Notes: a model not told the origin generated them from the letters alone. A stretch of 32,000 nucleotides of DNA from Candidatus Iainarchaeum sp. (GCA_030688545.1 JAUYHT010000006.1:240001-272000); one strand, 5' to 3'. Positions 11,209 to 32,000 are shown, counted from the stretch's first letter. Numbers and translations are program-made.

Positions 11209-11385
11209 GAATGAAGTTCTGTACGACCAATACTTATAAGGAAACTTTATTGGATCGGGAGAATCTTTGGGTATGAGCCCATTCTAACCAGGATATGGTG
11301 TCATTCCACGTATATCTTGAAAAACAATACGCTCGCGCCCTCATTCGAAAGGGCACCTCTGACTATCCCCACCCACCAGGGTAGG

Positions 11386-11823
11386 TCATCCCTCTTGCAC
11401 GATGATAGTTCCGAATAAATGAGGGGCCAAGTGGTCGTGGTATTTCCATTCCCCCACATGGTTGAAGGTAAATGAGAATTCCTCTCCATTTGACAATCCC
11501 CGACAGGCATCGAATGCGCTCCCCAAACAGCCGCCCCCCTCGGGATAAGCGTTATGCGTGGGATGCACCGCCGAGGCCGGCCAATGAGGGTTAGTATCCG
11601 TGTTGCGGAAGGTGATGGTTTCCCCCTGTGTAATCGTGATGGTTGATGGGAAAAACCCGGACGAGGTGATGAGAATAATGTTGGGTTCCCCGGAAGTGGG
11701 AGGCGCCGGAGTAGCGGGAGGCGCGGGAATAGGGGGATTTCCCGCATCGGCGGGCTGGGCGCACCCCGATAATATAACGAGGAGGCTGATAGAAATGAGA
11801 AAAACCATTTTGGAATGCGCCAT
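11386..11823 (-). CDS. Cupredoxin-like lipoprotein with a non-canonical site
   Basis: Lipobox VILSGC is present. GETITFRNTDTNPHWPAS and the terminal WKYHDHLAPHLFGTIIV resemble a cupredoxin C-terminal strand but lack the ligand Cys. There is an extra CLGSAFDAC pair. Confidence 0.65.
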   Translation of the reverse strand: MAHSKMVFLISISLLVILSGCAQPADAGNPPIPAPPATPAPPTSGEPNIILITSSGFFPSTITITQGETITFRNTDTNPHWPASAVHPTHNAYPEGGGCLGSAFDACRGLSNGEEFSFTFNHVGEWKYHDHLAPHLFGTIIVQEG

Positions 11824-11867
11824 ACCCCCTTATCCATTTTCTAGTATAAAAAAGGATAGTGAGGGCC

Positions 11868-14156: not shown

Positions 14157-14176
14157 GACCTCAATCCAATTTTATT

Positions 14177-14227
14177 GGAGTAACCCAAACTTCAATTCAA
14201 TTAACCATTCCTCATTTTCAAGTAACC
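14177..14227. promoter_or_regulatory. Phased direct repeats upstream of copA
   Basis: TTCAATTAACC lies at 14196-14206 and TTCAAGTAACC at 14217-14227, with a third GTAACC at 14180-14185. The three TAACC ends are exactly 21 bp apart, 20-70 nt upstream of the copA start. Confidence 0.3.
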
Positions 14228-14317
14228 TTTTCTGGGAAAAAACATACAGCGCCCCAACCCAATACATGGGACGCCGATGACTTAAACGCCCCTCCGCATC
14301 GCCAATAATCAATAGGT

Positions 14318-14563
14318 TCAGGCAAATCGGTTGTAGATGAATGCTATCACGTACCCGAATAGGAACCCCATGATGCCGGCTTCGATAATGCCGAACAGGA
14401 TGCCGATAGGAGAGAGGGTGAAGAACATGTGGGATTGCATCATCATCTGCGCCATCCCCCCATACATCCCCCAATTCCCGATAATCCCTAACACGAGCAT
14501 GCTCAAAGCCGAAACCCCGGCTCCAGCCAATCCCAATGCCATCACATTCAATTTAGTCACCAT
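14318..14563 (-). CDS. Small Met-rich membrane protein (81 aa)
   Basis: Two to three TM helices with a GMYGGMAQMMMQSHM stretch. GGAGGGAGG and A/T-rich boxes lie upstream. It sits directly upstream of copA. Confidence 0.65.
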   Translation of the reverse strand: MVTKLNVMALGLAGAGVSALSMLVLGIIGNWGMYGGMAQMMMQSHMFFTLSPIGILFGIIEAGIMGFLFGYVIAFIYNRFA

Positions 14564-14702
14564 TTTCCAATCAACCTCCCTCCGCTCACGCAGTCCGTTT
14601 TGTTATTTCACTGATAATGTCGATAGGACATTTCTAAATTCCCTCGTTTATATTCTTTTTTCTTTATACTCTCCTCGAATCGATTGGATAGCCAACTCAT
14701 GT

Positions 14703-15176
14703 TCATGAACCAGCCCCCCAGACGAAAACCCGTTCGGCCGCCCCACCCACTCCTCGCAGGCGTAACGTCAGCATCCGAGCGTCTTCCACGATGGGAAACA
14801 AGAGGATTCCGCTCCGATGATGACCCCCGGGAGGGCTTCCTTCCCATCCCAATGCGGCGTACGTTTTCCCTCTTCCATCCTCGAGCACGCTGACCTGAGT
14901 TAAATCTTCTTCCAGGGAGATGCGATGGTTGTCTAATGTCACATCGAACCGAATACCGTCTGAGGAGATGACCTTGGGGGTCACACTCACGGTTACCTCA
15001 TTCTGGTTGTCCACGAGCGAGGTGAAATCGGACGCACGCAGGGGGGCGGATTCCATCCCTGAGGGGGAAGGACTCTCAAGGAATAATCCATATCCCACCA
15101 CCCCTACCACTAACACAAAGGCGAGCACCAGGCCCGCTCCTAAAATTTCTTTCGTTTGACTCAATGCACTCGTCAT
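14703..15176 (-). CDS. Membrane-anchored extracytoplasmic beta-rich protein with a GGHH motif (operon gene 6)
   Basis: It has an N-terminal TM helix, then VTVSVTPKVIS..FDVTLDNHRISLEED..WEGSPPGGHHRSGILLF. The start is set at ATG 15176, 1 nt after the upstream TAA, with GAGGAGGG upstream. Confidence 0.7.
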   Translation of the reverse strand: MTSALSQTKEILGAGLVLAFVLVVGVVGYGLFLESPSPSGMESAPLRASDFTSLVDNQNEVTVSVTPKVISSDGIRFDVTLDNHRISLEEDLTQVSVLEDGRGKTYAALGWEGSPPGGHHRSGILLFPIVEDARMLTLRLRGVGGAAERVFVWGAGS

Positions 15177-15177
15177 T

Positions 15178-15651
15178 TTATCCCTCCTCATTTTGTTTTT
15201 GGATAATCGTTTGGGTTTGAAAAGAAAGGGCGTCGGTCAATAATCCATGCGTCTCAAGGACGGTGAGCATGTGCACTAACCCATACGCTCCCGCCAGGAG
15301 ACCAAAACCAAGGAATATTTGTTCATAGGACGCGAGCGCCGCGGCGATCCCCGCCATCCCTAATAGGGGAAATAAATCCAATACGTGATGCGCGCAGCAG
15401 GCAGCCATGCTTCCTGCGGATACCCCTCCCGCGGCCATCATGGCGGGGTTGGCTTTTCGCACGCGGTGCGCGAACGCATACAATCCCATCTGCGCTCCGA
15501 ATAATCCCACTAATGGAAGGAGGAGGAAGCCATTGCGCTGGAGGCTGTCCAGGGCGTGCGCTTCTCCATTCAGTAGCGTGAGCAGTCCTAAATAGGCGGC
15601 GAGGAGGAGTACCGATGCCAGAAGGCCAATGCCAATATCCTGTTTCTCCAT
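15178..15651 (-). CDS. Polytopic membrane protein with a CCAHH motif (operon gene 5)
   Basis: About 4 TM helices, with SMAACCAHHVLDLFP inside a helix. The start could be ATG 15651 (AAGGAG 8 nt upstream) or ATG 15657 (TGATG overlap with the upstream stop). Confidence 0.7.
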   Translation of the reverse strand: MEKQDIGIGLLASVLLLAAYLGLLTLLNGEAHALDSLQRNGFLLLPLVGLFGAQMGLYAFAHRVRKANPAMMAAGGVSAGSMAACCAHHVLDLFPLLGMAGIAAALASYEQIFLGFGLLAGAYGLVHMLTVLETHGLLTDALSFQTQTIIQKQNEEG

Positions 15652-15656
15652 CCTCA

Positions 15657-16199
15657 TCACTCCTTACAGCAGTCTACAAGTTTAGTGAAGAGTGCTGTCG
15701 CCTTCTGCATGGTAGTCGGGGGATCGGGAATCGAGGAAACGGGCGCCAGAATAGGTCTTCCTTTTTCCTTTTTTTCCATGGGAATATTCAACACAAAGAA
15801 AAGAGATAGAAGTTCAAATGCATGCGTAAAGAAGGGGAGGGCTTCCTTTTCTTGGTCGCGGGAATGGAGCTTGGTCCCCACCTCATACAGGCGCATGCTG
15901 GCCGCCAGCAGATGCTTGGAGGCGCACCATTCCTCCCCTTGTGGATTTTTGACCACCATTTTCATGGTTTCCTGACGCATGCCCCGGATCTCCTGCATGT
16001 AATCCAGGTATTTCGTTTCCTTGGTTTTGGCAAATGAAAAATAGAAATGCTCCTCCAGGCTGACGAGATTCATGAGGCCGATGGCCAAATCCTCGAGCGT
16101 GGACAAATCCCCTCCCTTCGTTTGAAAATCGTCGGGAAATGGATTCTCCTTTTTTCCATGAGAAATAGGATGCGAGGCGGAGGGAACATGGATCGCCAT
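15657..16199 (-). CDS. Soluble helical protein ending in DCCKE (operon gene 4)
   Basis: 180 aa counted from ATG 16199, 1 nt after the upstream TGA. It has no TM segment, an internal EEWCASKH and a C-terminal LVDCCKE. The track's longer start at 16235 overlaps the upstream gene. Confidence 0.65.
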   Translation of the reverse strand: MAIHVPSASHPISHGKKENPFPDDFQTKGGDLSTLEDLAIGLMNLVSLEEHFYFSFAKTKETKYLDYMQEIRGMRQETMKMVVKNPQGEEWCASKHLLAASMRLYEVGTKLHSRDQEKEALPFFTHAFELLSLFFVLNIPMEKKEKGRPILAPVSSIPDPPTTMQKATALFTKLVDCCKE

Positions 16200-16200
16200 G

Positions 16201-16740
16201 TCAAGCCACCCCCCACTGCAACAGGGCCGCGGCACTCCCTACGAGAAGGAGGGAGAGCAAAACCCCTTGATATGGGATGAGGCTCTTTCCCCTGGTTTTA
16301 CGAATACGCCCGTGCAGGCCATGCGCGACCAGCGCGGCAACCCCCCCGATGGCCACTCCCAAGTAGGATTTTTCAATCCAGTATACTTTATTGAGAAGCC
16401 CCCCGCTCTCTCCAAGGAGGCGCAGCGGCAATAGTATTTGGTCCGAGGGCAAGGCGTTCACGGCGATCGCGGTGAGGAGAAAGGTTCCCCCGATGACGAG
16501 CGCATCCTGGTGGGGAACGTATTTTTTCTTCATGGCCTGGGCGAACATCAACCCCATCACCATTCCCGCACCCCCCACAAAAGCCCCCACGGCTCCCAGG
16601 CCCATTCCCAAATAGGAAGCCGTCACCGCGCCCGTTCCCACGGCGAGCGTGCAGAGGGGGCAGTGGGCGTGAACCACGGGGCTTAACCCCAGGAGAGGGA
16701 CCCCGAAGAGTCCCCCGCGCAGGAGGGAGGGTGCGTTCAT
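16201..16740 (-). CDS. Polytopic membrane protein with an HAHCPLC motif (operon gene 3)
   Basis: 179 aa, Gly/Ala-rich TM helices, with VVHAHCPLCTLAVG at the first helix. Confidence 0.75.
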   Translation of the reverse strand: MNAPSLLRGGLFGVPLLGLSPVVHAHCPLCTLAVGTGAVTASYLGMGLGAVGAFVGGAGMVMGLMFAQAMKKKYVPHQDALVIGGTFLLTAIAVNALPSDQILLPLRLLGESGGLLNKVYWIEKSYLGVAIGGVAALVAHGLHGRIRKTRGKSLIPYQGVLLSLLLVGSAAALLQWGVA

Positions 16741-16741
16741 A

Positions 16742-17062
16742 TCAGCACCCGCCTACCATGGTTGGGGCGGCCGACGGAGCCGCGCTCGGCGTATTGGATG
16801 GGGCTGCGGGAGCAACGATATTCCCACTGAGCAACGCTCCGCCCGATCCGTTTACCTGCCGGATGTCCGCGGCGAGTTCCCCCACCTGGAGGAATTGCAC
16901 CACGCTCATCGCGAGCAGGAGAAAGGCTCCCAGGATCAGGAAATAAGACACGGTGTTTCTTTCCGGGGAGGCGACCTCTTTCCCGGCTTCCTCATGTTGG
17001 GTGGGCGCACCCTCTTTTCCGTGCGCAGAGTGGTTTTTACAACAGTCCATGTGTTCGCTCAT
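16742..17062 (-). CDS. Bitopic protein: N-terminal MDCCKNHSAH, one TM helix, Pro/Ala/Ser linker, C-terminal MVGGC (operon gene 2)
   Basis: 106-aa ORF. The ATG is 1 nt after the upstream TAA. Confidence 0.7.
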   Translation of the reverse strand: MSEHMDCCKNHSAHGKEGAPTQHEEAGKEVASPERNTVSYFLILGAFLLLAMSVVQFLQVGELAADIRQVNGSGGALLSGNIVAPAAPSNTPSAAPSAAPTMVGGC

Positions 17063-17063
17063 A

Positions 17064-17744
17064 TTAGCACCCCCCCACCATACCGGAGCCGCTTCCCTTC
17101 TCTATTCCGCGGTAAGCGTTCGAGGAGAGGTTGATGAAATTCAATGGGATTCCATTGGATTCCAGAGCGACGGCTTTCTGAGATATTTGCGTCGGGAAGA
17201 AGAGGGCTTTCCATTTCCCTAATTCTTCGAGTATTTGGTCATCCGTGTATTCGTCCGGGTGTTCCGTCAGGATATACTTGGCCACTCCCCGCATGGCGAA
17301 GCTGTGCGCGCACCCGCACGCGGCTTCCCCATTAGCGAAAATAATGGATTCCGCCCCGCAGCAGTATTCACAGCTAATCTGCAATAGGGTCTTGATGTAG
17401 CGTTCCTTAGCCTCCCCCTCTAATGTAATTGATTGATCCAAAGTGGCCAGTTTCCGGATAGTGGCATCCGCTTTCTGGGGGGAGTCGGCGGAGACATCGT
17501 CATAGGATATACCTAATTCCGCTCCGTATACTGGGGGCACGCCCTTGGGAAGCCCGGCGTATAGTTCTATTTGAGCAGGCGGTGTCGTGGGGGGAGCAGT
17601 GATCATTCCCGTGGCGGGATTCATTTGCGTCCCCATGCCACTTCCCATCATTTCCTGCATGCTCCCTAATTGCATGAAATTAATTACCGAAAAGACCAGC
17701 GCCAGGGCCAATAGCCCAGATGTAAGGGTCGTTGTCCGATCCAT
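17064..17744 (-). CDS. Membrane-anchored Met- and Cys-rich protein ending in MVGGC (operon gene 1)
   Basis: 226 aa with an N-terminal TM helix, Met cluster MQEMMGSGMGTQMNPATGM, Cys cluster SCEYCCGAESIIFANGEAACGCAHS and C-terminal GSGSGMVGGC. Confidence 0.75.
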   Translation of the reverse strand: MDRTTTLTSGLLALALVFSVINFMQLGSMQEMMGSGMGTQMNPATGMITAPPTTPPAQIELYAGLPKGVPPVYGAELGISYDDVSADSPQKADATIRKLATLDQSITLEGEAKERYIKTLLQISCEYCCGAESIIFANGEAACGCAHSFAMRGVAKYILTEHPDEYTDDQILEELGKWKALFFPTQISQKAVALESNGIPLNFINLSSNAYRGIEKGSGSGMVGGC

Positions 17745-17830
17745 AGTTCCATCATTCTCCTGCCATCCCTTCCCTGAGGGGAAGCGGATTTTTGATTAAG
17801 GAGGGAGCGAAACACCAATTATAGGTACGC

Positions 17831-17846
17831 GTGAAACTGGTTTCAC
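17831..17846. promoter_or_regulatory. Perfect palindrome GTGAAAC-TG-GTTTCAC between a TATA-like box and the regulator start
   Basis: 7-bp arms with a 2-bp spacer. It lies 6 nt after AATTATAGG (17817-17825) and 20 nt before ATG 17866. A second near-palindrome CTTCCCTGAGGGGAAG lies at 17769-17784. Confidence 0.4.
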
Positions 17847-17865
17847 TCCCCAAACATGGGTTTAT

Positions 17866-18396
17866 ATGGCTTTTTCGTCTGGGAATACATACATTATGCT
17901 TCCTCCACGCACCCTGGGATATGTTCTCGTAATTTGTGCCATCGTCCTGGGCGGCATCCTCTTTTCCCTCAAATCCAACGCGGACACGCAGGGATTGGCA
18001 TTGTGCCAGGCCTACACCGAGCAGAACAAGGACATGGCCTCCTGCCCCGCGCACGACGACAACGTTTCCTGGTCTTTCATCACCGCCTTCGGCATCACCT
18101 TCATCGCCCTGGGCACGGGAGTGTATTTTGTAGTGGCACCTGTTCCTCCTTCCCCTCCCAATGAGGCGGTCGCCCTCTCCCCCGCCCCCACCTTCGATGC
18201 CTCTTCCCTGGAAGGGGATGAAAAAGGGGTGTGGGAAAAGATGGTGGAGGCCAACGGTTCATTATTCCAGAGTGACCTGACGCGAACAACGGGGTTTTCC
18301 AAGGTGAAGCTCTCCCGCATTCTGGACAAGCTGGAATCCAAAGGGGCCATCGAGCGCAAGCGCCGGGGAATGGCCAACCTGGTCGTGGCGAAGTAA
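17866..18396 (+). CDS. Membrane-anchored winged-helix transcription regulator (COG2512-like architecture)
   Basis: TM1 is followed by a roughly 35-aa loop with LALCQAYTEQNKDMASCPAHDD, then TM2, a Pro-rich linker and a C-terminal wHTH (LFQSDLTRTTGFSKVKLSRILDKLESKGAIERKRRG). It is divergent from the Cys-rich operon. Confidence 0.8.
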   Translation: MAFSSGNTYIMLPPRTLGYVLVICAIVLGGILFSLKSNADTQGLALCQAYTEQNKDMASCPAHDDNVSWSFITAFGITFIALGTGVYFVVAPVPPSPPNEAVALSPAPTFDASSLEGDEKGVWEKMVEANGSLFQSDLTRTTGFSKVKLSRILDKLESKGAIERKRRGMANLVVAK

Positions 18397-18399
18397 TTT

Positions 18400-18444
18400 C
18401 CAAACCATCCCGGAATGTTCAGTAGGCGGCCCTTGTCCTTATTA
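18400..18444 (+). repeat. 45-bp direct repeat, copy 1 (left flank of the VapBC cassette)
   Basis: CCAAACCATCCCGGAATGTTCAGTAGGCGGCCCTTGTCCTTATTA differs from 19113-19158 by about 6 substitutions and one 1-nt indel. Confidence 0.85.
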
Positions 18445-18465
18445 TTTTAGGTTAAAAGTATCCTT

Positions 18466-18855
18466 TTACCAGGTGGTCTTGATATAGCCGGAGGCGATAA
18501 TCGCCGGATCTTTAGTTATAGCCGTACCTCCTAATACCTTGGCCGTGGCCGTAATAATCTTATCATGGATTTCAGGCACCTTTTCTAAATGCTGGCACAC
18601 TCGGATAATCCCGAGAGTCAAATCATAAACAATGTAGTTACTGCTTTCCCCTATTTTACCTAAAAGTTCGGAGAACAATTCACTTGAATCCTTTTTCTCG
18701 CAGATATAGAGTGCTTCTGCCAACACGATGGTTGGAATGACGATCGTGTTTTCACCTTTTTCGGCCTGCCGGAATACTGATGCGGCATTTGAGGATAATT
18801 GGATGTTTTCCGTCAAAAACCATAATAGTGAATGGGTATCCGCGATATACATCAT
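18466..18855 (-). CDS. vapC: PIN-domain toxin (VapC-like)
   Basis: 129 aa with acidic PIN residues in IADTHS, VLAEAL, IHDKIITATA and AITKD. It overlaps the upstream antitoxin ORF by 4 nt. Confidence 0.85.
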   Translation of the reverse strand: MMYIADTHSLLWFLTENIQLSSNAASVFRQAEKGENTIVIPTIVLAEALYICEKKDSSELFSELLGKIGESSNYIVYDLTLGIIRVCQHLEKVPEIHDKIITATAKVLGGTAITKDPAIIASGYIKTTW

Positions 18856-19034
18856 CGTAATGAATGAAACAGAGACTTCTCAGAGTCGGCAATATCTGTT
18901 TCCGATATCTCGATGCTTTTCCAGAGTCCGGCGATTGACACTACCTTTTTAGCGCCAGGTTGGATGGCACTTTTCAGCTCATTCAACGCATGCTCCAGAT
19001 CTTCCATCTTTTTAGCGAGCAATAGCGAATCCAT
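18852..19034 (-). CDS. Putative VapB-type antitoxin (60 aa)
   Basis: Small ORF overlapping vapC by 4 nt. TATATAAA (19058-19065, minus-strand sense) lies 24-31 nt upstream of the ATG. Confidence 0.65.
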   Translation of the reverse strand: MDSLLLAKKMEDLEHALNELKSAIQPGAKKVVSIAGLWKSIEISETDIADSEKSLFHSLR

Positions 19035-19112
19035 ATTATCATTTACCTAAAAGATTCTTTATATAGGTACTGGAGGTAAATCGCCATTAGCCCATTATTA
19101 AAATTCCACCTC

Positions 19113-21016: not shown

Positions 21017-21232
21017 CCAAAACCCTCCCCATTAAAATATCCCGCGGGCGGGTTGGAAAGCAGGAAATCAGTTAATCAGGTTCACATCGTTATTTGAGGA
21101 TAAATCAAGCCCGATTGAATTCAAAAATGGGAGTCATTCAGTGATTCGATTTATTTCTCAAACGGATCTATCTTCCCTAGGCAAAGTTGAAAAGATAGGC
21201 AGGCTTATATTTCCAGAATTTTTCTTCCCAGA

Positions 21233-22072
21233 ATGCGGTGGCAAAAAATTGGGGCAGCGATTGGGTTTGGTCTAATTATTTTTATTATCGCGTCCATTTT
21301 CACACCTAACAATCAGGATTCAACTTTATCCGTCATTTTATCGGTATCCACATTCCTCTTTGGGGTTTTCATCGCTTTTGCTATTTCAGATCGCCGCAGC
21401 CGCATGGATGCCATTCGTGAGAATGATTCTGTGGAACGTGGATATATCGAAGAATTGTATCGTCTGTCATCCATTTTTGGAAAAAAAATTCAAAAAGAAT
21501 TCCAGATCGTTTTGGATAAATACCTTATGGCCACCCTCGACTATCCTATTTTCTATTACTATTTGACAGAGTACGAATTCAAGCAAATTGACAAAAAAAT
21601 TAACGAACTGGATATTAGCGGGGATAAAGAAAAGATTGCCTATGGAAATATTATGGATATTATGGAGAAAATGGGGGTGGCCCGAAAAAAAACAATTGCA
21701 CATATTGGAGACACTCTTTCAATTTTTGAATGGACCATATTCACCTTTCTTTCCATAATAATAATTTCAACCCTTTTACTGTCCAATTCTGGAGAAGTTT
21801 ATTCTGCATTGGTGGTGGGGATCATGAGCTTTATCATTGCATTGCTTATCGTATTCCTCGACAGCCTGAATTCATTGCAATGGAAAGAGGAAGAACGGCT
21901 GTTTGAGCCATACCAGCGGACATTCGAAGCCATCGATTTGATGCGCTATTATCCTGAAGACCTGCTCAGGGAGGGTAGGATTACCAAACACGTTGGAATA
22001 AAATACCGGGTAGGCACATACACTTTTTTGAACAACAAGATAATAGGGAAAAAAATTTCCATCAAAGGATAG
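21233..22072 (+). CDS. Hypothetical membrane protein (N- and C-terminal TM pairs, charged central region)
   Basis: 279-aa ORF in A/T-rich DNA. CTTATATTT lies about 30 nt upstream. I could not confidently assign a family. Confidence 0.65.
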   Translation: MRWQKIGAAIGFGLIIFIIASIFTPNNQDSTLSVILSVSTFLFGVFIAFAISDRRSRMDAIRENDSVERGYIEELYRLSSIFGKKIQKEFQIVLDKYLMATLDYPIFYYYLTEYEFKQIDKKINELDISGDKEKIAYGNIMDIMEKMGVARKKTIAHIGDTLSIFEWTIFTFLSIIIISTLLLSNSGEVYSALVVGIMSFIIALLIVFLDSLNSLQWKEEERLFEPYQRTFEAIDLMRYYPEDLLREGRITKHVGIKYRVGTYTFLNNKIIGKKISIKG

Positions 22073-22206
22073 ATATTTCCCTTTGGGCCCCGTACTAATG
22101 GTTGGGAGATAACTTTTTTGATTAAACTTTTTTCTTAAAAAAGTTAGTTTGATGAACCCTTTTTCAAAAGGTTCTTTACTAAAAAAGCCCGAGCAATAAC
22201 CAATAC

Positions 22207-22245
22207 ACCCCTACAAAATCAATAGGTTTAAATTATTGTAGGGGT
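22207..22245. promoter_or_regulatory. 10-bp perfect inverted repeat bracketing a TATA-like box just upstream of fic
   Basis: ACCCCTACAA (22207-16) and TTGTAGGGGT (22236-45) enclose GGTTTAAATTA. The right arm ends 5 nt before the fic ATG. Confidence 0.4.
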
Positions 22246-22250
22246 AATTA

Positions 22251-23201
22251 ATGGGAATGGTTTCCAAGAAAAGGAAGCGAATAAGAGGAAATGAATATGA
22301 CTACTGGAGCCTTTCGGTACGCTTGCCCAATGGAAAGGTCAGAACAGCCCAAAAAATGGTCCGGGACGGGGACGATCCGAAAACCATACGGGTTTGGGCT
22401 GATGCACAGGAACTCAAAATATGGCGGAATTGGGCCTCTCAATTCTACGCCGCCGACTCTATCTTTACCCCTGACCAAATCCAGAAAATAGAGGAAATGC
22501 GAATTGGATACAAAAAGATTACCCGCCGCTTGACCAAGAATCAACTAAAAGACTTGTTTGATCGCTTTACGGCCAATTTCACATATGAATCTAACGCACT
22601 GGAAGGAAGTTCTCTCACTCTCAAGGATGTAGCCATTATCTTGTTTGAGAAAAATATCATCAAAGGAAAAGATTTGCGTGAAATTTATGAAACAGTGAAC
22701 TCAAGAAATGTAGTGAATCTCATCCTAAAACGAAAATTCAAAGTAACGGAAAAAGACATCATCCGCGTACATAAAATGCTGGTTGACAAAATGGATGTAG
22801 AAACAGGATACAAAAAAATACCAAATTGGCTTCCCGGAAGAAAGATTGAAACCACGATGCCCGAAAATGTCGAAAAAGAAATGAAATCATTGGTAGAATT
22901 CTACCAAAAAAATAAAACGACTACACACCCATTGAAATTAGCCGCCCAGATCCATGGCAAATTCGAAAAAATACATCCATTTGACGATGGAAATGGCCGC
23001 GTGGGACGCTTTCTTATTAACATCATGTTGGTCAATGATGGATATCCACCACTGATTATTCGGAAAACCCAACGCATCCACTACCTGAAATGCTTGGAAG
23101 ATTTTGACAATGGATATACCCATAATATTGAGCGATTTTTACTGGAAAAATACAAAGACACCTACCGAAAATTCTTCGAAATATACATCAAATATATTTG
23201 A
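22251..23201 (+). CDS. Fic-domain protein (AMPylase family), class II with an internal inhibitory helix
   Basis: The Fic motif HPFDDGNGRVGR lies at 22974-23009 and the inhibitory motif SNALEG, (S/T)xxxE(G/N), at 22590-22607. Confidence 0.9.
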   Translation: MGMVSKKRKRIRGNEYDYWSLSVRLPNGKVRTAQKMVRDGDDPKTIRVWADAQELKIWRNWASQFYAADSIFTPDQIQKIEEMRIGYKKITRRLTKNQLKDLFDRFTANFTYESNALEGSSLTLKDVAIILFEKNIIKGKDLREIYETVNSRNVVNLILKRKFKVTEKDIIRVHKMLVDKMDVETGYKKIPNWLPGRKIETTMPENVEKEMKSLVEFYQKNKTTTHPLKLAAQIHGKFEKIHPFDDGNGRVGRFLINIMLVNDGYPPLIIRKTQRIHYLKCLEDFDNGYTHNIERFLLEKYKDTYRKFFEIYIKYI

Positions 23202-23214
23202 ATGGGTTATCCTA

Positions 23215-23251
23215 AGCCCTCGGTGGGCAATGTGGTAATTAGTTCGAATCC
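23215..23251 (-). repeat. tRNA-Thr 3'-end-like site A
   Basis: AGCCCTCGGTGGG (23215-27) is identical at 13 of 13 positions to 27734-27746. GTTCGAATCC follows 14 nt later (23242-51). The site starts 13 nt after the fic stop. Confidence 0.8.
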
Positions 23252-23400
23252 TTGGAATTCCAAAAAAACCTTGTTTTTGATGATGAAAAGGGGGATTAAT
23301 TAGCAGTACGACCCTGCCCTGTATGCGGTAGCGGCAGTTTTCCTTATTTCCTTTGGCCGAAAGTGCAATAGTGCATTAAATTGTGTATAAAGCCAATGCC

Positions 23401-23577
23401 CTATTTTTTCCCCAGGAATTTGGCGTGCTGTTTGCTCCACACGCTATTGGGTGTTTTCTTGAGCCAGTCCGCGTAGTAATCGATGAATGCCATCCGTTCT
23501 TTTCGGTTCTTTTCGACATCCGCACGGAGCGCCTTCCGATCCTTTTCCGTCAATCTGGGGACATCGCTCAGTTCCAT
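23401..23577 (-). CDS. 58-aa ORF coupled to the nucleotidyltransferase (copy 1)
   Basis: Below the track's cut-off. Sequence: MELSDVPRLTEKDRKALRADVEKNRKERMAFIDYYADWLKKTPNSVWSKQHAKFLGKK. Its ATG overlaps the upstream gene's last codons (ATGGAACTGA). A paralog lies at 31612-31785. Confidence 0.6.
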   Translation of the reverse strand: MELSDVPRLTEKDRKALRADVEKNRKERMAFIDYYADWLKKTPNSVWSKQHAKFLGKK

Positions 23578-24242
23578 AACACCCTCTCCGCCACATCCAT
23601 AACCCCAATCTCGTTAATATGCCTTTGGAGGAGGGGCACGTCTATTTTTTCCAGGAAAAGCCGATACAAGTGCCGTGCGTCTTCAAAATCTTTATCCGTC
23701 CCCAGTAGTAATTTATATGCGATTTGGAGTTCGATCTCGGAGGTAAACAGGCGATGGCCATTGAGGATCACTTCAATCGGATGGCTCATCGAATAGTGGT
23801 TGTATTCCGACTTCGCATACTTGATCTCAAAATTCGGGATGACTTTCCCATTTAGGGCAAAGCGGATTGCGGTATCGTTCTCCAAGTATTCATGCAACGC
23901 ATCCTGCGGATTGGTTGAATTAAGACAGTACATACCCGCCTCCTCTAAAGCGGCCCACCATTCACGCATCCTTTTTTCATCCAGCCGCTCGATGAATAAA
24001 TCGACATCTTCCGTTTGCCGGCTTCTCCCGAATAAGATGGCAATGTACCCGGAAATGATGACATATTGGATGTCCATCCTATGCAAAATATCCACGAACC
24101 CGAGAACCAATTCGTCCAAGTCCGACAGTTCGCGGTCAAACACGATTTTCCCAGGAGAATACTCGAACTCCATGATACAAGAGAAACCCTCCCCTGGGTT
24201 ATATCCCTTTGGGCAGGGAACCGCCAAAAAAAACCTCGCCAC
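23568..24242 (-). CDS. Putative Pol-beta-superfamily nucleotidyltransferase (copy 1)
   Basis: ISGYIAILFGRSRQTEDVDLFIE fits the G-[GS]-x(9-13)-D-x-D NTase signature. The track's start is a GTG; ATG 24173 (MEFEYSPGK..) with GATATAA about 30 nt upstream is the more likely start. Confidence 0.7.
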   Translation of the reverse strand: MARFFLAVPCPKGYNPGEGFSCIMEFEYSPGKIVFDRELSDLDELVLGFVDILHRMDIQYVIISGYIAILFGRSRQTEDVDLFIERLDEKRMREWWAALEEAGMYCLNSTNPQDALHEYLENDTAIRFALNGKVIPNFEIKYAKSEYNHYSMSHPIEVILNGHRLFTSEIELQIAYKLLLGTDKDFEDARHLYRLFLEKIDVPLLQRHINEIGVMDVAERVLWN

Positions 24243-24362
24243 CAGAGCCCAACCCTTTGATAGAAGTCGAATCCATGACTCTTTTTAGGATGGAAAAATG
24301 ATTGGTTTATTATTCATTTATTGAACCACAATGGTTTTAATTAATTCAAGAGGCACTTAATT

Positions 24363-25046
24363 GTGGCTGGATTTTTAACGCATGAGTGGATTGCCTATTT
24401 GGTATTGCAAAAGCTGAAAAGAAAACAAATTATTTCGCAATCTGAAAACATTGATGATTACTTTTTTGGCGCAGTCGCACCCGATATTCGGTACTCTGCA
24501 AATATTGCAAGAGAAATAACACATAAGCCAGGCGGTGAAGAATCGATATTCGAAATGTTAAAAATGAGCGTTCCTTCATTTCCCTTTGTCGCTGGATACG
24601 AAACCCACCTGATTACAGACATAGCTTGGTCCAATGATAAAAATTGGCTGAAGGAGAGTATTTACGAACATTATTCAATGAATGCGAATAATACTATTCA
24701 AAAAATTACCCTTTATGGTTTGGTCGATGATTATTTTCAAGCCAAGGCAGATTGGCTTTTTCCATATACGTGTGCTGGATATGTTTTTCGCGCGAATGAT
24801 TTTGAAATTCTTAAAAGGATAAGAATATCTGAAAAAGAAATTTTGGCATATAAATCAATCCTGATTCCTTATTTGCGTGAACCTGGAATTGATAGTATAA
24901 TCAATCTTGGTTTTTTTCCGGATAATAGAGATGAAACTCTGGTAGCACAGTTCTTGGATGATCATACTTCTATAACAAAATATTTGCAGAAATTTGAGAA
25001 AACGGCGGTTGAAAAATGTGTTGAAAGCTTGGAGAAATATGTATGA
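24363..25046 (+). CDS. Zinc-dependent phospholipase C-like / metal-dependent hydrolase family protein
   Basis: The N-terminal GFLTHEWIA...FFGAVAPDIRY...THKP...GYETHLITDIAW matches the His/Asp pattern of the PLC-like family. The start is a GTG with AAGAGG 9 nt upstream. Confidence 0.55.
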   Translation: MAGFLTHEWIAYLVLQKLKRKQIISQSENIDDYFFGAVAPDIRYSANIAREITHKPGGEESIFEMLKMSVPSFPFVAGYETHLITDIAWSNDKNWLKESIYEHYSMNANNTIQKITLYGLVDDYFQAKADWLFPYTCAGYVFRANDFEILKRIRISEKEILAYKSILIPYLREPGIDSIINLGFFPDNRDETLVAQFLDDHTSITKYLQKFEKTAVEKCVESLEKYV

Positions 25047-25168
25047 AGAACTGGGAAGGAATAGCTGTTAGAATTATTATTGGAATGGCAGGAGTGGTTG
25101 TATTTTTCCACCTGGTGGAGCGCCTATATTTGTTGTATTTTTTGTTTTTGGTTCTGACGACCCCATAA
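25043..25168 (+). CDS. 41-aa hydrophobic peptide, ATGA-overlapped with the upstream gene
   Basis: Sequence: MKNWEGIAVRIIIGMAGVVVFFHLVERLYLLYFLFLVLTTP. Its start shares ATGA with the upstream stop. It is below the track's cut-off. Confidence 0.4.
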   Translation: MKNWEGIAVRIIIGMAGVVVFFHLVERLYLLYFLFLVLTTP

Positions 25169-25175
25169 CCTGAAA

Positions 25176-25212
25176 AGCCCTCGATGAGGTAAACCGTAAC
25201 CCGTTCAAATCC
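25176..25212 (-). repeat. tRNA-Thr 3'-end-like site B
   Basis: AGCCCTCGATGAG (25176-88) matches the tRNA end at 11 of 13 positions. GTTCAAATCC follows 14 nt later (25203-12). The site starts 7 nt after the stop of the 41-aa ORF. Confidence 0.75.
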
Positions 25213-25273
25213 CCAGCGCTCGCGTTTCTCTATTTATTTAGTTTGAGATTTCCAGGATTACCAGATAATGGGA

Positions 25274-25612
25274 TCAAAACCCTTCGGCCCCAAGCGTTTG
25301 AAGAATGTGCTTAATGTCATCTATTACTTTCTGCTGGTTCTTTTTGTCAGAGATGCGAACGAATTTGATGAGGAGATCAACCAGTTCTTCTTGGGAAAAT
25401 GCCTTGATTTTATTTCCATCCGCAATAAAGTAGAACCGGAATGATTTATACTTGAGTTCCTTGATCACGATGCCGCCTACCCTCCCGAGCGGCTTACCTT
25501 TTTTGGGATTTTCTTCCAAGGTTTCCAGGAGATCCAATATCTCATGCGATTCTCCCTTGAATTTTCGCTTGATTTCATCCAAAAGCGAGCGGACTATTTC
25601 GACCTGGGCCAT
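25274..25612 (-). CDS. RelE/ParE-like toxin
   Basis: 112 aa. LEENPKKGKPLGRVGGIVIKELKYKSFRFYFIADGN resembles the RelE/ParE core. It overlaps the upstream small ORF by 19 nt. Confidence 0.55.
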   Translation of the reverse strand: MAQVEIVRSLLDEIKRKFKGESHEILDLLETLEENPKKGKPLGRVGGIVIKELKYKSFRFYFIADGNKIKAFSQEELVDLLIKFVRISDKKNQQKVIDDIKHILQTLGAEGF

Positions 25613-25806
25613 TGCGCTTCAACCTCTTTCCGGGCTTCCTTGAGCGAAATCGTATTATTGGAAGCCATCAGAAATTCGCGCAGTTGAACCTTAACGGCCA
25701 TGCTGTAGAGTCGCTGAAGAATCATATCATAACTTTCCCCCTTCGACCCGAAAGAAGAAATCTTCCGCTTAGTTTCAGTGGACAGCTGAATCGTCGTATT
25801 ACTCAT
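25594..25806 (-). CDS. Putative antitoxin (70 aa)
   Basis: The start is set at ATG 25806 (MSNTTIQLSTETKRKISSFGSKGESYDMILQRLY..). TTTTAAAC lies about 27 nt upstream. Confidence 0.55.
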   Translation of the reverse strand: MSNTTIQLSTETKRKISSFGSKGESYDMILQRLYSMAVKVQLREFLMASNNTISLKEARKEVEAQWPRSK

Positions 25807-25814
25807 ACCATAAC

Positions 25815-25833
25815 AACTATAGCCACTATAGTT
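25815..25833. promoter_or_regulatory. Perfect palindrome AACTATAG-CCA-CTATAGTT at the TA promoter
   Basis: 8-bp arms located between the TATA-like box (25832-25838) and the antitoxin ATG (25806). Confidence 0.45.
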
Positions 25834-25931
25834 TAAAAGAATTCCTTCAACCACCCCCCCCAATAAATGGTATTTTTACAACCTTTCCAAACCCCTACCA
25901 ATACGCCGGGAATTTGCTCCCCCCTACCTCA

Positions 25932-25944
25932 AGCCCTCGATGAG
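25932..25944 (-). repeat. tRNA-Thr 3'-end-like site C
   Basis: AGCCCTCGATGAG, identical to site B. It has no GTTCRAATC box. It lies in the divergent gap between the TA pair and the SDR gene. Confidence 0.7.
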
Positions 25945-26021
25945 ATTGGTACGTTAGGATAAAGTCCCACGCATTCCCAAAGTTGGAATGGATTAAAAGG
26001 ACTTTACTGCCTCGTTCTCCC

Positions 26022-26711
26022 ATGAATCTGCAGGGCAAGGTTGTGATTATAACTGGGGCGAGCCGAGGTCTTGGAAGGGAACTTGCATTGGCTTTTTCCA
26101 AGGAACTGGCTCATGTGGTGGCAAGCGCACGTTCCTCAAAAGAACTTAAGGTGCTTGAAGGTGAGACTAAGGGAATCAGTATTCAAGCGGATGTGATCAA
26201 GGATTCCGATATGCTTCAACTCGCCAAAAAGACGGTTTCAAAGTTTGGTCGAATTGATATCTGGGTGAATAATGCAGGGATTTGGATTCCCCACGGTCCA
26301 GTTGAAGAGCTTAATTTTTCTCGCGTTCGAGACGTTATTGAAGTAAACCTCTTTGGAACGATGCATGGATCAAAAGCAGCTCTCCTTCAAATGAAAAAAC
26401 AAGGAAATGGAATGATCATTAACATTCTATCTACAAGTGCTTTAGACGCAAGAGCTGGAAGCTCTGCATATGGTGCGAGCAAGTACGGAATCATCGGATT
26501 TGCCAAAGCGCTTCGGAAAGAAGCTGAGCCCTCCGATATTCGAGTCGTGAACATTTATCCAGGCGGAATGCGCACTCATCTATTCGATGAAAAGATACCG
26601 GATAATTATTCCAGTTATATGAATCCAAAAGAAGTAGCTCAAAAAATCGTCGAAAATCTTAAGAAGGAAAATCCAGAAGAAGAATTAATACTTAAGAGGC
26701 CGAAGCCCTAA
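26022..26711 (+). CDS. Short-chain dehydrogenase/reductase (SDR)
   Basis: TGASRGLG (TGxxxGxG), NNAG and YGASKYG (YxxxK) are present. The start is set at ATG 26022 (MNLQGKVVIITGAS), with TTAAAA about 26 nt upstream. Confidence 0.9.
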   Translation: MNLQGKVVIITGASRGLGRELALAFSKELAHVVASARSSKELKVLEGETKGISIQADVIKDSDMLQLAKKTVSKFGRIDIWVNNAGIWIPHGPVEELNFSRVRDVIEVNLFGTMHGSKAALLQMKKQGNGMIINILSTSALDARAGSSAYGASKYGIIGFAKALRKEAEPSDIRVVNIYPGGMRTHLFDEKIPDNYSSYMNPKEVAQKIVENLKKENPEEELILKRPKP

Positions 26712-26748
26712 GCCCTCAATGGGCGCGAGACGGTAAGGGGTTCAAATC
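26711..26748 (-). repeat. tRNA-Thr 3'-end-like site D
   Basis: AGCCCTCAATGGG (26711-23) matches at 11 of 13 positions and begins at the last base of the SDR stop codon. It is preceded by a partial duplicate AGCCCT (26704-09). GTTCAAATC follows 16 nt later (26740-48). Confidence 0.75.
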
Positions 26749-26819
26749 ATATAAGGTAGTGTGGGATTGGTTTTGACCAATCTTGCGTGTTTAATAAAGT
26801 AGGAACAGATTCTTTTTAC

Positions 26820-27623
26820 ATGAAAAATCCGTTGAAACATTCCAGAAGGAAAAAACCCGCACCTAAAACGGATCGTGTAACCATTTTAAATCGCCGTGGA
26901 AAGCGGCTACACGGTTTCTTAACCAATGTTGGTAGTACTTCGATCGTGCTAGTACTCCCTGGTGCAGGGGAATCTTGTAATCAAATATTTTATCAAAAAA
27001 TAGCAAAAGTAGCCGCTGCTCATGGATTGGACTGTTTACGCATGGATTTGTCAGGTTATGGTGAGAGCGAAGGAAATCGGTTTGAGATTACCCCAACGCT
27101 CCATGTTCAGGACGTGGTGGATATTTATACTCAACTAAAACCGAATTATTCTTCTTTCTATGCAGCCGGATTTTCATGGGGTGCGTACATAGCATTAATT
27201 ACTTCACTGCATGTTCCCTTTCACCTTCAATTCATTTTTTCTCCCGCAATATTTTATGAAAATAGGGAAATCAATCATGCATTTAATCGCGCGTGGAAAA
27301 GGAATGGGTGGTTGCCGGATTATAATGTATTTGTGAAAAATGGGAGCATCCGACCGCAGAAAGAGAAACACCAACTAAATTATGCATTTTTGACCTCCCT
27401 CCGACGATATACGATTGATAACGTGAGCCGCACTCGTGTTCCAACGATATTAGGATGCGGAAAAAAAGAAAAACTATTTGTAAAACAAATAAATCAACTT
27501 AAAGAAAAAATTCATGCCCCCGTTCAAAAAAACCTTTTTTCAGGAGTTGGCCATGAAAGTCGAAATCCACTATATTATGAAAAGGCCCTCAAACTTATCA
27601 ATGACAACTTGCCTACTATTTGA
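26820..27623 (+). CDS. Alpha/beta-fold hydrolase
   Basis: It has the nucleophile elbow GFSWG (GxSxG) and an HG-like LPGAGES region. The start is set at ATG 26820, with TTTAATAAA about 25 nt upstream. Confidence 0.8.
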   Translation: MKNPLKHSRRKKPAPKTDRVTILNRRGKRLHGFLTNVGSTSIVLVLPGAGESCNQIFYQKIAKVAAAHGLDCLRMDLSGYGESEGNRFEITPTLHVQDVVDIYTQLKPNYSSFYAAGFSWGAYIALITSLHVPFHLQFIFSPAIFYENREINHAFNRAWKRNGWLPDYNVFVKNGSIRPQKEKHQLNYAFLTSLRRYTIDNVSRTRVPTILGCGKKEKLFVKQINQLKEKIHAPVQKNLFSGVGHESRNPLYYEKALKLINDNLPTI

Positions 27624-27733
27624 TTTCAAACCACACCCTAACTAATGCCACAATTTCTTCCAAATCTAGTTCGCCATCCATTTCGGGGGACGTGCACCCT
27701 TTTCAGCTTTTGGATTTGAACTGGTTGCCTGAG

Positions 27734-27805
27734 AGCCCTCGGTGGGATTCGAACCCACGACCTGCGGTTTACAAAACCGCTGCTCTACCACTGAGCCACG
27801 AGGGC
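27734..27805 (-). tRNA. tRNA-Thr: tRNA-Thr (anticodon UGU), 72 nt, no encoded CCA
   Basis: Hand-folded cloverleaf: GCCCTCG-TG-GCTC-AGTGGTA-GAGC-A-GCGGT-TTTGTAA-ACCGC-AGGTC-GTGGG-TTCGAAT-CCCAC-CGAGGGC-T. All four stems are Watson-Crick paired. Confidence 0.9.
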
Positions 27806-27948: not shown

Positions 27949-28140
27949 TTATTTCCGGCGCTTTCGAACAATACGCTTTCGCGTAGAGCGGGCGCGCACG
28001 GTGCGCGTCTTCCGCGCGGGCTTTCGAACGGTTTTCACCGTTGTTCGGCCGCGTGTTTTCCGCACACTTTTTCGAACCGTTTTGGGACGGGTCGTTTTAC
28101 GGGTTGTCTTGCGAACAACTCGTTTTGTTTTGCGTTGCAC
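27949..28140 (-). CDS. Hyper-basic 63-aa Arg/Lys/Thr/Val repeat protein
   Basis: GTG start with GGAGGT 7 nt upstream and a terminator downstream. About 29 of 63 residues are R or K, in reiterated (V/T)RK(T) units. Confidence 0.65.
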   Translation of the reverse strand: MQRKTKRVVRKTTRKTTRPKTVRKSVRKTRGRTTVKTVRKPARKTRTVRARSTRKRIVRKRRK

Positions 28141-31611: not shown

Positions 31612-31785
31612 TCACTTCTTCCCCAAGAACTTAGCGTGCTGTTTGCTCCACACCTTGTTGGGGGTTTTTTTCAGCCACTCCGCGTAATGTTCCACGAATG
31701 CCATCCGCTGTTCCGAATTCCGGCGTTTCTCCTCTTCCATCTCCTTCCAGTCTTTCTCGGTCAATGTGGGAAGTCTTTTTTCCAT
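31612..31785 (-). CDS. 57-aa ORF coupled to the nucleotidyltransferase (copy 2)
   Basis: Sequence: MEKRLPTLTEKDWKEMEEEKRRNSEQRMAFVEHYAEWLKKTPNKVWSKQHAKFLGKK. It is about 60% identical by eye to 23401-23577, and its ATG is embedded in the 3' end of the upstream gene. Confidence 0.6.
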   Translation of the reverse strand: MEKRLPTLTEKDWKEMEEEKRRNSEQRMAFVEHYAEWLKKTPNKVWSKQHAKFLGKK

Positions 31786-32000
31786 AGAGTGTGCTCTGCC
31801 TGCTTTTCGACGCCCAATTCGCGTATATGATGGGATAACAACCCCGTATTTAACTTATCGGGGAATATTTTATACAAATGCCGCGCGTCCTCGAAATCCT
31901 TCTCCGTGCCCAAATACCATTTGTAGGCAATCTGTAGTTCAATCTCCGACGTGTATAGCAATCGCCCCTTCAGCCAGATCGGGATTCTCTTTTCCAAAGA
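31761..32000 (-). CDS. Nucleotidyltransferase paralog (copy 2), C-terminal fragment; N-terminus beyond the window
   Basis: LLYTSEIELQIAYKWYLGTEKDFEDARHLYKIF aligns with RLFTSEIELQIAYKLLLGTDKDFEDARHLYRLF of 23568-24242. The frame is open to position 32000. Confidence 0.7.
   Translation of the reverse strand, partial: SLEKRIPIWLKGRLLYTSEIELQIAYKWYLGTEKDFEDARHLYKIFPDKLNTGLLSHHIRELGVEKQAEHTLWKKDFPH

Follow-up and report, generated by a model that had tools for sequence, protein, structure and literature searches.

At the 3' end of a tRNA-Thr gene in Candidatus Iainarchaeum sp., a DPANN archaeon with a small genome, lies an array of four gene modules, M1 to M4, whose boundaries carry copies of the last nucleotides of that tRNA. 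The DNA analysed, called the window here, is a stretch of 32,000 nucleotides (GCA_030688545.1 JAUYHT010000006.1:240001-272000; positions are counted from its first letter), of which the array occupies 23.2-27.7 kb, ending at the tRNA. DUF7343, DUF7557 and DUF8150, all found in the window, are presumably archaeal Pfam families. The boundaries are named A to E, and each is built, as described below, around a copy of 13-14 nt of the tRNA end with adjoining arms:

21017-23213, plus strand: low-GC extension of the island, with a bestrophin-like gene and fic; its right end bears the left arm of site A.
23194-23252, plus strand: site A, a complete junction, with left arm 23194-23212, 14-mer AAGCCCTCGGTGGG 23214-23227 and right arm 23233-23252.
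23228-25174: M1, with DUF8150 (58 aa) and a 201-aa protein on the minus strand, and a zinc phospholipase C (PLC)-like protein (227 aa) and a 41-aa open reading frame (ORF) on the plus strand.
25150-25212, plus strand: site B, with a degenerate left arm 25150-25173, 14-mer AAGCCCTCGATGAG 25175-25188 and right arm 25195-25212.
25189-25930, minus strand: M2, a toxin-antitoxin (TA) pair, that is a DUF7557 antitoxin-like gene and a putative RelE-fold toxin of 112 aa; identical 14-mers flank it.
25903-25967, plus strand: site C, with a degenerate left arm 25903-25930, 14-mer 25931-25944 (the same as that of B) and a degenerate right arm 25948-25967.
25945-26709, plus strand: M3, a short-chain dehydrogenase (SDR, 229 aa), with a TATA-like box about 30 nt before the ATG.
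26703-26750, plus strand: site D, with 14-mer AAGCCCTCAATGGG 26710-26723 and right arm 26731-26750; the SDR stop codon TAA lies across the junction.
26724-27733, plus strand: M4, an alpha/beta hydrolase (267 aa).
27712-27729, minus strand: left arm of site E and right end of M4, with the minus-strand sequence GGCAACCAGTTCAAATCC and a gap of 4 nt to the 13-mer (12.5 bits with the arm hidden Markov model, HMM).
27734-27746: site E, the anchor copy, last 13 nt of the tRNA.
27733-27805, minus strand: intact tRNA-Thr(TGT) (ARAGORN; Rfam RF00005, 76.9 bits, full length).
23215 (A, 13/13), 25176 (B, 11/13), 25932 (C, 11/13), 26711 (D, 11/13) and 27734 (E, 0 mismatches), plus strand: copies of the 13-mer.

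The tRNA-Thr, which is the sole tRNA gene of the window, ends in 13 nt that read AGCCCTCGGTGGG on the plus strand. With up to two mismatches, this word has exactly five matches in the 32 kb, on the plus strand only and within the 4.6 kb that end at the tRNA, against a mean of 0.75 per shuffled window (maximum 3; 0 of 100 shuffles reach five). All five copies, with their common orientation, coordinates and sequences, had been given in an earlier note on this DNA, made from the sequence alone, and were confirmed. The repeats correspond to the 3' part of the tRNA and lie downstream of it in tRNA orientation, that is, on the plus strand and to the left of the minus-strand tRNA, which is the arrangement known from genomic islands; in the Rfam alignment they start exactly at the border of T-loop and T-stem and cover 13 nt of the tRNA. 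Among 17 unrelated metagenomic loci with an identical 25-nt tRNA 3' end, none had an array of extra copies (0/17), and about 115 kb of such sequence yielded two stray single near-matches. The 13-mer family is non-random and homologous to the tRNA 3' end.

Among the copies, AAGCCCTC is unchanged in A to D, and E has GAGCCCTC. The 13-mers of A and E are identical (13/13), and so are the 14-mers of B and C (14/14), from which similarity drops abruptly on either side; of the two changes in D, one is also found in B and C, and D has no identical partner. Because two independent decays would yield the same bases at the same two positions with a probability of about 1/78 (transitions only) or less, by our own arithmetic, B and C are taken to have a common origin.

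A second box, GTTCRAATC, occurs on the plus strand at 23242, 25203 and 26740, which is 14, 14 and 16 nt past the 13-mers of A, B and D, and again at 27713-21 on the minus strand and within the tRNA T-loop. The earlier note had described this box and its inverted copy near the tRNA. It had also placed the repeats at gene ends (13 nt past the fic stop, 7 nt past the stop of the 41-aa ORF and over the SDR TAA), site C in the divergent gap between the TA pair and the SDR, and the intervals at 1961, 756, 779 and 1023 bp, all of which held on re-examination.

The 13-mers are the centres of larger, dyad-symmetric junction sites of about 62 nt. The repeat unit described earlier, 13-mer plus box, forms part of this longer one. 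Alignment of the four sites A to D gave about 45 shared nt, CCT.AAGCCCTCRRTGRG...GGTAA...GTTCRAATCC, and the profile made from it matches only those sites in the roughly 49 kb available (E 1e-8 to 1e-11). A full junction consists of a left arm (19 nt), 1-4 nt, the 14-mer, 5-7 nt and a right arm (18-20 nt). The right arms of A (GGTAATTAGTTCGAATCC), B (CGTAACCCGTTCAAATCC) and D (GGTAAGGGGTTCAAATCA) have the consensus GGYAA-N3-GTTCRAATCC, and the general arm, about 19 nt long, reads GG(Y)(W)AA-N3-RTTCRAATCC.

The symmetry emerged when right flanks were compared, in all combinations, with reverse-complemented left flanks. Inverted copies of right arms lie in the left flanks of A and E (reverse complements GGATAACCCATTCAAATA and GGCAACCAGTTCAAATCC), with scores of 23-25 against a 99.9th percentile of the background of 22; the left arm of E scores 25 with the right arm of B, 18 with that of D and 17 with that of A. 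It is only as inverted right-arm copies that the likeness of the left flanks is significant. Five arms are well preserved; beyond these, the HMM built from them matches the window only at the tRNA T-loop. At site C the left arm matches the extended right arm of B in inverted orientation (CAAATTCCCGGCG / CAAATCCCCAGCG), and M2 has an inverted extension specific to its ends, CAAATCCCCAGCG / CGCCGGGAATTTG. Genes run directly into the arms: the fic stop codon lies inside the left arm of A, the left arm of B overlaps the end of the 41-aa ORF, and the SDR stop is at the junction.

Two details near site D are recorded in their own right. The site contains a tandem duplication of AAGCCCT at 26703-26716 (AAGCCCTAAGCCCTC), across which the SDR TAA arises, and this could be the footprint of an aberrant insertion or excision. 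Some 50 nt to the right of D, GTGGGATTGGTTTTGACCAATCTTGCGTGTTTAATAAA (26761-26798, plus strand) is loosely like the antisense T-stem-anticodon loop of the tRNA (GTGGGATTCGAACCCACGACCTGCGGTTTACAAAA); the score of this alignment is within the shuffle range, and the stretch overlaps with the putative TATA box ahead of the hydrolase gene.

Base composition sets the locus apart from its surroundings. Between 21.0 and 27.8 kb the GC content drops to 0.39-0.44 from about 0.51, and GC at third codon positions (GC3) is 0.30-0.66 in the island genes against 0.59-0.73 in the flanking host genes, the modules differing among themselves: 0.44 in the bestrophin-like gene and fic, 0.60-0.66 in the pair of DUF8150 and the 201-aa protein, 0.30 in the PLC-like gene, 0.49-0.53 in the TA pair, 0.38 in the SDR and 0.33 in the hydrolase. 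The island is foreign and mosaic in composition, and it probably also takes in the low-GC stretch from about 21.0 kb. M1 in turn looks composite, its minus-strand pair standing at 0.60-0.66 and its plus-strand genes at 0.30-0.45. The non-coding stretches inside the array do not exceed 190 nt, so that they leave no room for a decayed integrase, and the TATA-like boxes suggest that the cassettes carry their own promoters.

In the low-GC extension, 21017 to 23213, no significant distal site was found. Its two intergenic gaps, to the left of site A, each contain AAGCCCGA on the plus strand (21107-21114 and 22185-22192), ahead of the bestrophin-like gene, exactly at the GC3 boundary, and ahead of fic; ACAAAATCA at 22213 has the offset at which a right-arm box would fall. 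These may be decayed older junctions; they reach about 1.8 SD in a similarity scan and are missed by the HMMs of site and arm alike.

As to the genes themselves, fic also matches the PADLOC models SoFic and PDC-S04. The 201-aa protein, called an NTase in the earlier note, has no match in Pfam, NCBIfam, PADLOC, PHROGs or PDB sequences. The 112-aa protein had been called RelE-like, and it is the fold, not more, that bears this out: it gave a confident model (predicted local distance difference test, pLDDT, 89.6) that comes structurally closest to RelE toxins, among them the aRelE of P. horikoshii (target-normalised TM-score 0.70), and so is best described as a predicted RelE-fold toxin of a TA pair. 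A word-indexed search with the M4 hydrolase returned no homologue besides itself. DUF8150 (57-58 aa) occurs twice with an overlapping upstream partner, at 23401-24173 and at 31612-32000, both on the minus strand (the second at 3846-4345 of locus L002). The partner has 201 aa in the island, where GC3 is host-like (0.60-0.66), and 116 aa in the host flank; such pairs may form a family of two-gene modules that is native to this genome.

No enzyme has been identified that could have assembled the array. Neither precomputed Pfam annotation of Logan gene calls (from 5 kb before the window to 37 kb after its start) nor Pfam scans made here (20 ORFs, 11.9-31.6 kb) show an integrase, recombinase or Cas1 domain in a span that starts about 17 kb to the left of the array and extends about 9 kb past the right side of the tRNA, in agreement with the earlier note, which had seen no recombinase. 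At the module borders, where the sites adjoin fic, the 41-aa ORF, the RelE-fold TA pair, the SDR and the hydrolase, neither an intact integrase nor a pseudogene nor the int(N)/int(C) halves of a split SSV-type integrase was found. Domains of a Cas1-type casposase or a family-B DNA polymerase appear in no module and nowhere else in that span, and an IntI tyrosine recombinase beside the array is likewise missing, as the Pfam data contain no domain of the Phage_integrase type.

The explanation to which we assign a probability of roughly 60% is that small non-autonomous gene modules were inserted serially at the tRNA-Thr 3' end by an enzyme encoded elsewhere. Modules of 0.75-2 kb would have been added one by one to give an accretion island, and each insertion would have left another copy of the terminal 13-14 nt of the tRNA. 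Each module would bear the arm motif of about 19 nt, inverted, at both ends, from which it follows that every junction has the order arm - 14-mer - arm and forms a dyad-symmetric stretch of about 62 nt. The arms would be the binding sites of an enzyme, encoded elsewhere or since lost, that cuts in or beside the 14-mer, which itself would be a crossover core or a duplicated target. The presence of inverted arms at both module ends favours discrete units over the remnants of random deletion. That the modules moved as units, and by which class of enzyme, we infer, because no relatives bearing the motif were found and the second sample described below keeps the gene order across site B.

Provided that the modules were inserted as units, tyrosine-recombinase exchange between att sites, with the crossover in AAGCCCTC, has slightly the better of the odds. 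Tyrosine recombinases are by far the commonest cause of repeats at tRNA ends, and the invariant 8-mer looks like the overlap region of such an enzyme. Staggered-cut, casposase-like transposition that duplicates the 14-mer would have perhaps one chance in three, and some other mechanism is left with a small share. Transposition is a serious alternative because the flanking copies are pairwise identical: identical copies around one insert are exactly what a target-site duplication predicts, and under att x att exchange the identity of B and C would require neighbouring modules with the same variant core. In addition, the order arm - 14-mer - arm resembles the succession of inverted repeat, duplication and inverted repeat between tandem transposons. 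This reading, with target-site duplication and inverted repeats as in casposons, was absent from the earlier note. The two mechanisms would differ in that transposition involves a 14-bp duplication of CCCACCGAGGGCTN and att recombination a conservative exchange within AAGCCCTC. The circular form of M2 is predicted to have the junction ...CGCCGGGAATTTGCTCCCCCCTACCTC-AAGCCCTCGATGAG-GTAAACCGTAACCCGTTCAAATCC..., and the empty site after loss of M2 would read ...CCCCATAACCTGA-AAGCCCTCGATGAG-ATTGGTACG....

Tyrosine-recombinase elements, casposons and tycheposons are all documented cases of repeated insertion at a single tRNA (PMC6563490; PMC4779613; bioRxiv 10.1101/2020.12.28.424599), and accretion at a tRNA end is a known principle. 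In tandem arrays of tyrosine-recombinase elements at tRNA ends, both archaeal (PMC6563490) and those of the tycheposons of Prochlorococcus (bioRxiv 10.1101/2020.12.28.424599), direct repeats of the tRNA 3' end likewise lie downstream in tRNA orientation; the newer elements push the older ones outward, and their composition is foreign, as at this locus. Archaeal att sites may be as short as 8 bp, and the smallest thaumarchaeal cryptic integrated element in one survey has 2.6 kb and encodes an integrase (PMC6563490). In contrast, the units here measure 0.75-2 kb with one to four genes and no integrase in the span searched, they have inverted arms of about 19 nt, and the copies around one module are identical while their surroundings are unrelated. 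What is unusual, then, is the size of the units, the lack of a recombinase in the span searched and junctions that have dyad symmetry and hold copies identical in pairs; the array is most likely a small-scale variant of known island building.

Units without an enzyme of their own have precedents. Cis-mobilizable elements (CIMEs) are att-flanked units that lack an integrase, and the modules described here have att-like flanks and no recombination or transfer genes. Xer-dependent IMEX elements and the pdif modules of Acinetobacter plasmids are also small and devoid of a recombinase, often hold a TA pair or single genes, and have dyad-symmetric sites; they are moved by an enzyme encoded elsewhere and use 28-bp dif-like sites, whereas the site at this locus is about 62 nt long and centred on a tRNA end. 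Streptococcal CIMEs are named in PMC6323972 and PMC5704250.

Casposons offer the closest model for the transposition mechanism. Family-2 casposons are Cas1-solo transposons of Euryarchaeota that target a tRNA 3' end beside the T-psi-C loop "leader", make a target-site duplication of 14-15 bp and have terminal inverted repeats; casposons in tandem are separated by copies of the duplication with substitutions (PMC4779613, PMC5137440, PMC6977970). The locus likewise has an archaeal host and a tandem arrangement at a tRNA 3' end; its 14-nt repeats and the inverted arms at five module ends may correspond to their duplication and terminal repeats, although att cores could produce such a pattern of repeats as well. 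It is conceivable that the modules are cargo-only derivatives of a casposon-like transposon, served in trans by a Cas1-type casposase, with the T-loop region of the tRNA-Thr as "leader"; the adjacent 14 nt would be duplicated at each insertion, giving 14-nt "repeats" with gene-sized "spacers". We regard this specific version as doubtful. The units are 5-20 times smaller than casposons and hold cargo only, with no Cas1 or PolB in view; 13 nt of the repeat lie inside the tRNA, compared with an overlap of 4-5 bp in known casposons; the arms are offset from the repeat by 1-7 nt and have no conserved terminal nucleotides, whereas terminal repeats lie directly inside the duplication in casposons; and literature searches brought up neither DPANN casposons nor non-autonomous ones.

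Several observations weigh against serial insertion of discrete modules, whatever the mechanism. Besides the missing enzyme, the left arm of B and both arms of C are degenerate, and the left flank of D, which lies inside the SDR gene, is without an arm. The arms are not flush with the 14-mer: the gap is 1-4 nt for one arm and 5-7 nt for the opposite one. A plain alignment of the left flanks of A, B and E shows no similarity that is significant alone, and M1, for all its composite look, has no internal site. The array is a single locus in a single population. The motif has 0 matches in 596 Gb of genomes (GTDB representatives) and 0 in JGI metagenome contigs, and in IMG/VR a looser motif pattern found only class II tRNAs or chance matches.

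The population itself offers little variation. Pieces of the locus were found in three assemblies (Logan SRR13727534, Logan SRR26726065 and GCA_034375545.1), all identical fragments at 99.96-100% identity to the window, with identical flanks in each. SRR26726065, the second sample, has the gene order unchanged across site B in one contig. Polymorphism in presence, absence or order was seen in none of the three, which adds to the points just listed, and there is no sign of current activity in the second sample or in the assembly flanks. Comparison with relatives is essentially out of reach because the flanking proteins have no close ones: the DUF4382 protein has its best relatives at 44-52% identity and a CxxCxxCC neighbour has reference-genome matches only at 26-27%, and a scan of neighbouring genes in 185,579 reference genomes returned nothing close.

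Some contigs break at the island. The Logan assembly of SRR13727534 has a break inside the tRNA, where the end of one contig overlaps the start of another by 23 nt (27767-27789), and contigs of GCA_034375545.1 end at about 22208 and at about 28357. Such breaks are probably ordinary fragmentation at a conserved tRNA and a low-GC island; they would also be expected if the island varied within the population.

With respect to the tRNA-anchored cassette capture proposed in the earlier note, the repeats, their homology to the tRNA, the boundaries, the cassette size and the lack of a recombinase nearby stand, and attC sites, current activity and generality are not supported. The public collections scanned contain no copy of the motif, and because there is only one locus, nothing can be generalised to a "system".

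Relatives of one cassette are plentiful. The toxin family of the TA pair has at least 1161 homologues and no Pfam model; among the best 120 of the 1161, which are 65-90% identical, are members from DPANN (Nano-, Woese- and Pacearchaeota, Diapherotrites) and from at least one bacterium of the candidate phyla radiation (Daviesbacteria). A palindromic operator of the CTATAG type is conserved ahead of the pair (25274-25854 of the window, minus strand; loci L040-L051), and the high conservation across domains suggests a very mobile addiction module. The homologue contexts examined contain no tRNA and no motif; in one lineage, for example, the pair is flanked by genes for a DEAD helicase and an ERCC4 nuclease. 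In the TA operon of another sample (toxin 87% identical), homology spans the operator and both genes and stops before the arms, and on this ground the arms are regarded as an addition to a widespread operon. In L051, another DPANN contig, whose relative has 78% protein identity, the pair is bracketed by a direct repeat of 16 nt, TC(G/A)CATCATCAGTCCT (15/16; 2398-2413 and 3053-3068, 655 bp apart), beside ribosomal protein genes. Shuffled sequence contains a chance repeat of this kind in 4 of 60 cases (about 7%), and the locus is suggestive of an insertion with flanking duplication at a site that is not a tRNA; mobility of the cassette elsewhere is only suggested by it.

Among the alternatives, one would have full-size proviruses or plasmids with integrases integrated serially and then deleted down to cargo and att scars, the small modules never having been mobile. 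The strong reduction of DPANN genomes speaks for such relics, as does the lack of visible activity in the other assemblies. Serial integration followed by degradation that leaves scattered partial tRNAs is documented (bioRxiv 10.1101/2020.12.28.424599), and solo terminal inverted repeats are known as remnants of casposons (PMC4779613). Nevertheless, one would not expect random deletion to spare inverted arms at both module ends right beside intact ORFs, there is neither an integrase pseudogene nor a non-coding gap above 190 nt in the array, and the 14-mers that flank M2 are identical. We therefore consider this origin unlikely.

It is quite improbable that the sites, of about 45-62 nt, act in cis, for example as the operator of a transcription factor, as a terminator or processing signal or as a tRNA-like RNA, common to the island genes. 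They are intergenic, near gene ends and promoters, and dyad symmetry is typical of operators. An operator, however, would hardly match exactly the last 13 nt of the adjacent tRNA, in tRNA orientation and from the discriminator base, and the motif is not found in the other 40 kb or so that were examined. An RNA element was rejected, as RNAalifold gave no conserved fold or covariation on either strand and single sites fold with z of -1.5 to +0.7; Rfam searches, with E up to 10 on 22-28.5 kb and at the gathering threshold on the whole window, returned the tRNA only. Circular junctions of M2 and M4 made in silico fold slightly better (z -2.8 and -1.2), and a matrix of arm pairings shows that pairing is generic, not module-specific.

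Three further candidates were discarded. Internally deleted pseudo-tRNAs on the plus strand fit less well than the antisense 3' end (8/13 against 13/13), with no partial tRNA match. Pairing with the tRNA 3' end, as at a primer-binding site or a T-box, was set aside because the 13-mer is not preceded by the complement of CCA. The modules are not miniature inverted-repeat transposable elements, as they hold intact genes and have no more copies in about 49 kb.

A classical integron cassette array without integrase (CALIN) is highly improbable. Integrons and CALINs do exist in Archaea (PMC9668308), and the locus resembles them in its gene-sized cassettes, in ORFs whose stops abut or overlap the sites, in the reversed TA cassette, in the lack of a neighbouring integrase and in imperfect palindromes with AAC...GTT outer boxes (GAAC/GTTC at these sites). 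Canonical attC sites, which the archaeal integrons also have (PMC9668308), consist of an inverted R'' (RYYYAAC) and R' (GTTRRRY) 55-141 nt apart. A regular-expression scan of both strands of 20.5-28.3 kb, a check on attC sites in the array, met 0 such pairs 40-150 nt apart, and because this consensus test failed, the CALIN was rejected. Moreover, no IntI was found, the centre (AAGCCCTC) and not the outer boxes is most conserved, the two arms of one palindrome belong to different modules, the centre copies a tRNA end, unlike attC sites, the anchor is a tRNA instead of attI, and the cassettes have apparent promoters of their own. Chance likeness of short GC-rich words to the tRNA end, for which one might cite the mere 13 nt and the four further copies of AAGCCCTC on the minus strand within genes elsewhere in the window, is hardly credible given the shuffles, the single strand, the clustering at module boundaries and a second motif at a fixed offset.

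The interest of the array lies in its host. In DPANN, genomes are tiny and few ways of acquiring genes have been recognised, and serial insertion of modules, if true, would mean that they collect accessory and defence-type genes (Fic, RelE-fold TA, hydrolases) in the manner of integrons with an enzyme acting in trans. If the repeats were casposase target-site duplications, the locus would be a natural intermediate on the way from casposon insertion to the growth of CRISPR repeats and spacers, formally between tandem casposons and a CRISPR array and functionally an integron-like platform of gene capture, and a long-discussed evolutionary scenario would become testable. If they were ordinary att scars, the array would be the example with the smallest units so far of a familiar process.

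Other genes of the window drew attention in passing. At its start, a gene of 2567 aa without Pfam domain (1-4965, minus strand) extends past the first position (11351-19054 of locus L011). Six tightly packed consecutive genes of 162, 159, 180, 179, 106 and 226 aa (14703-17744, minus strand) have no Pfam domain, on record or scanned, and the five tested with PHROGs, that is, all except the 106-aa gene, had no match; three of the six carry AAGCCCTC on the coding strand and may be paralogues. Adjoining the tRNA, a 63-aa ORF without family match (27949-28140, minus strand) encodes an extremely basic, repetitive peptide (...TVRKT.R...), and its DNA contains 33-nt direct repeats at 28003-28083.

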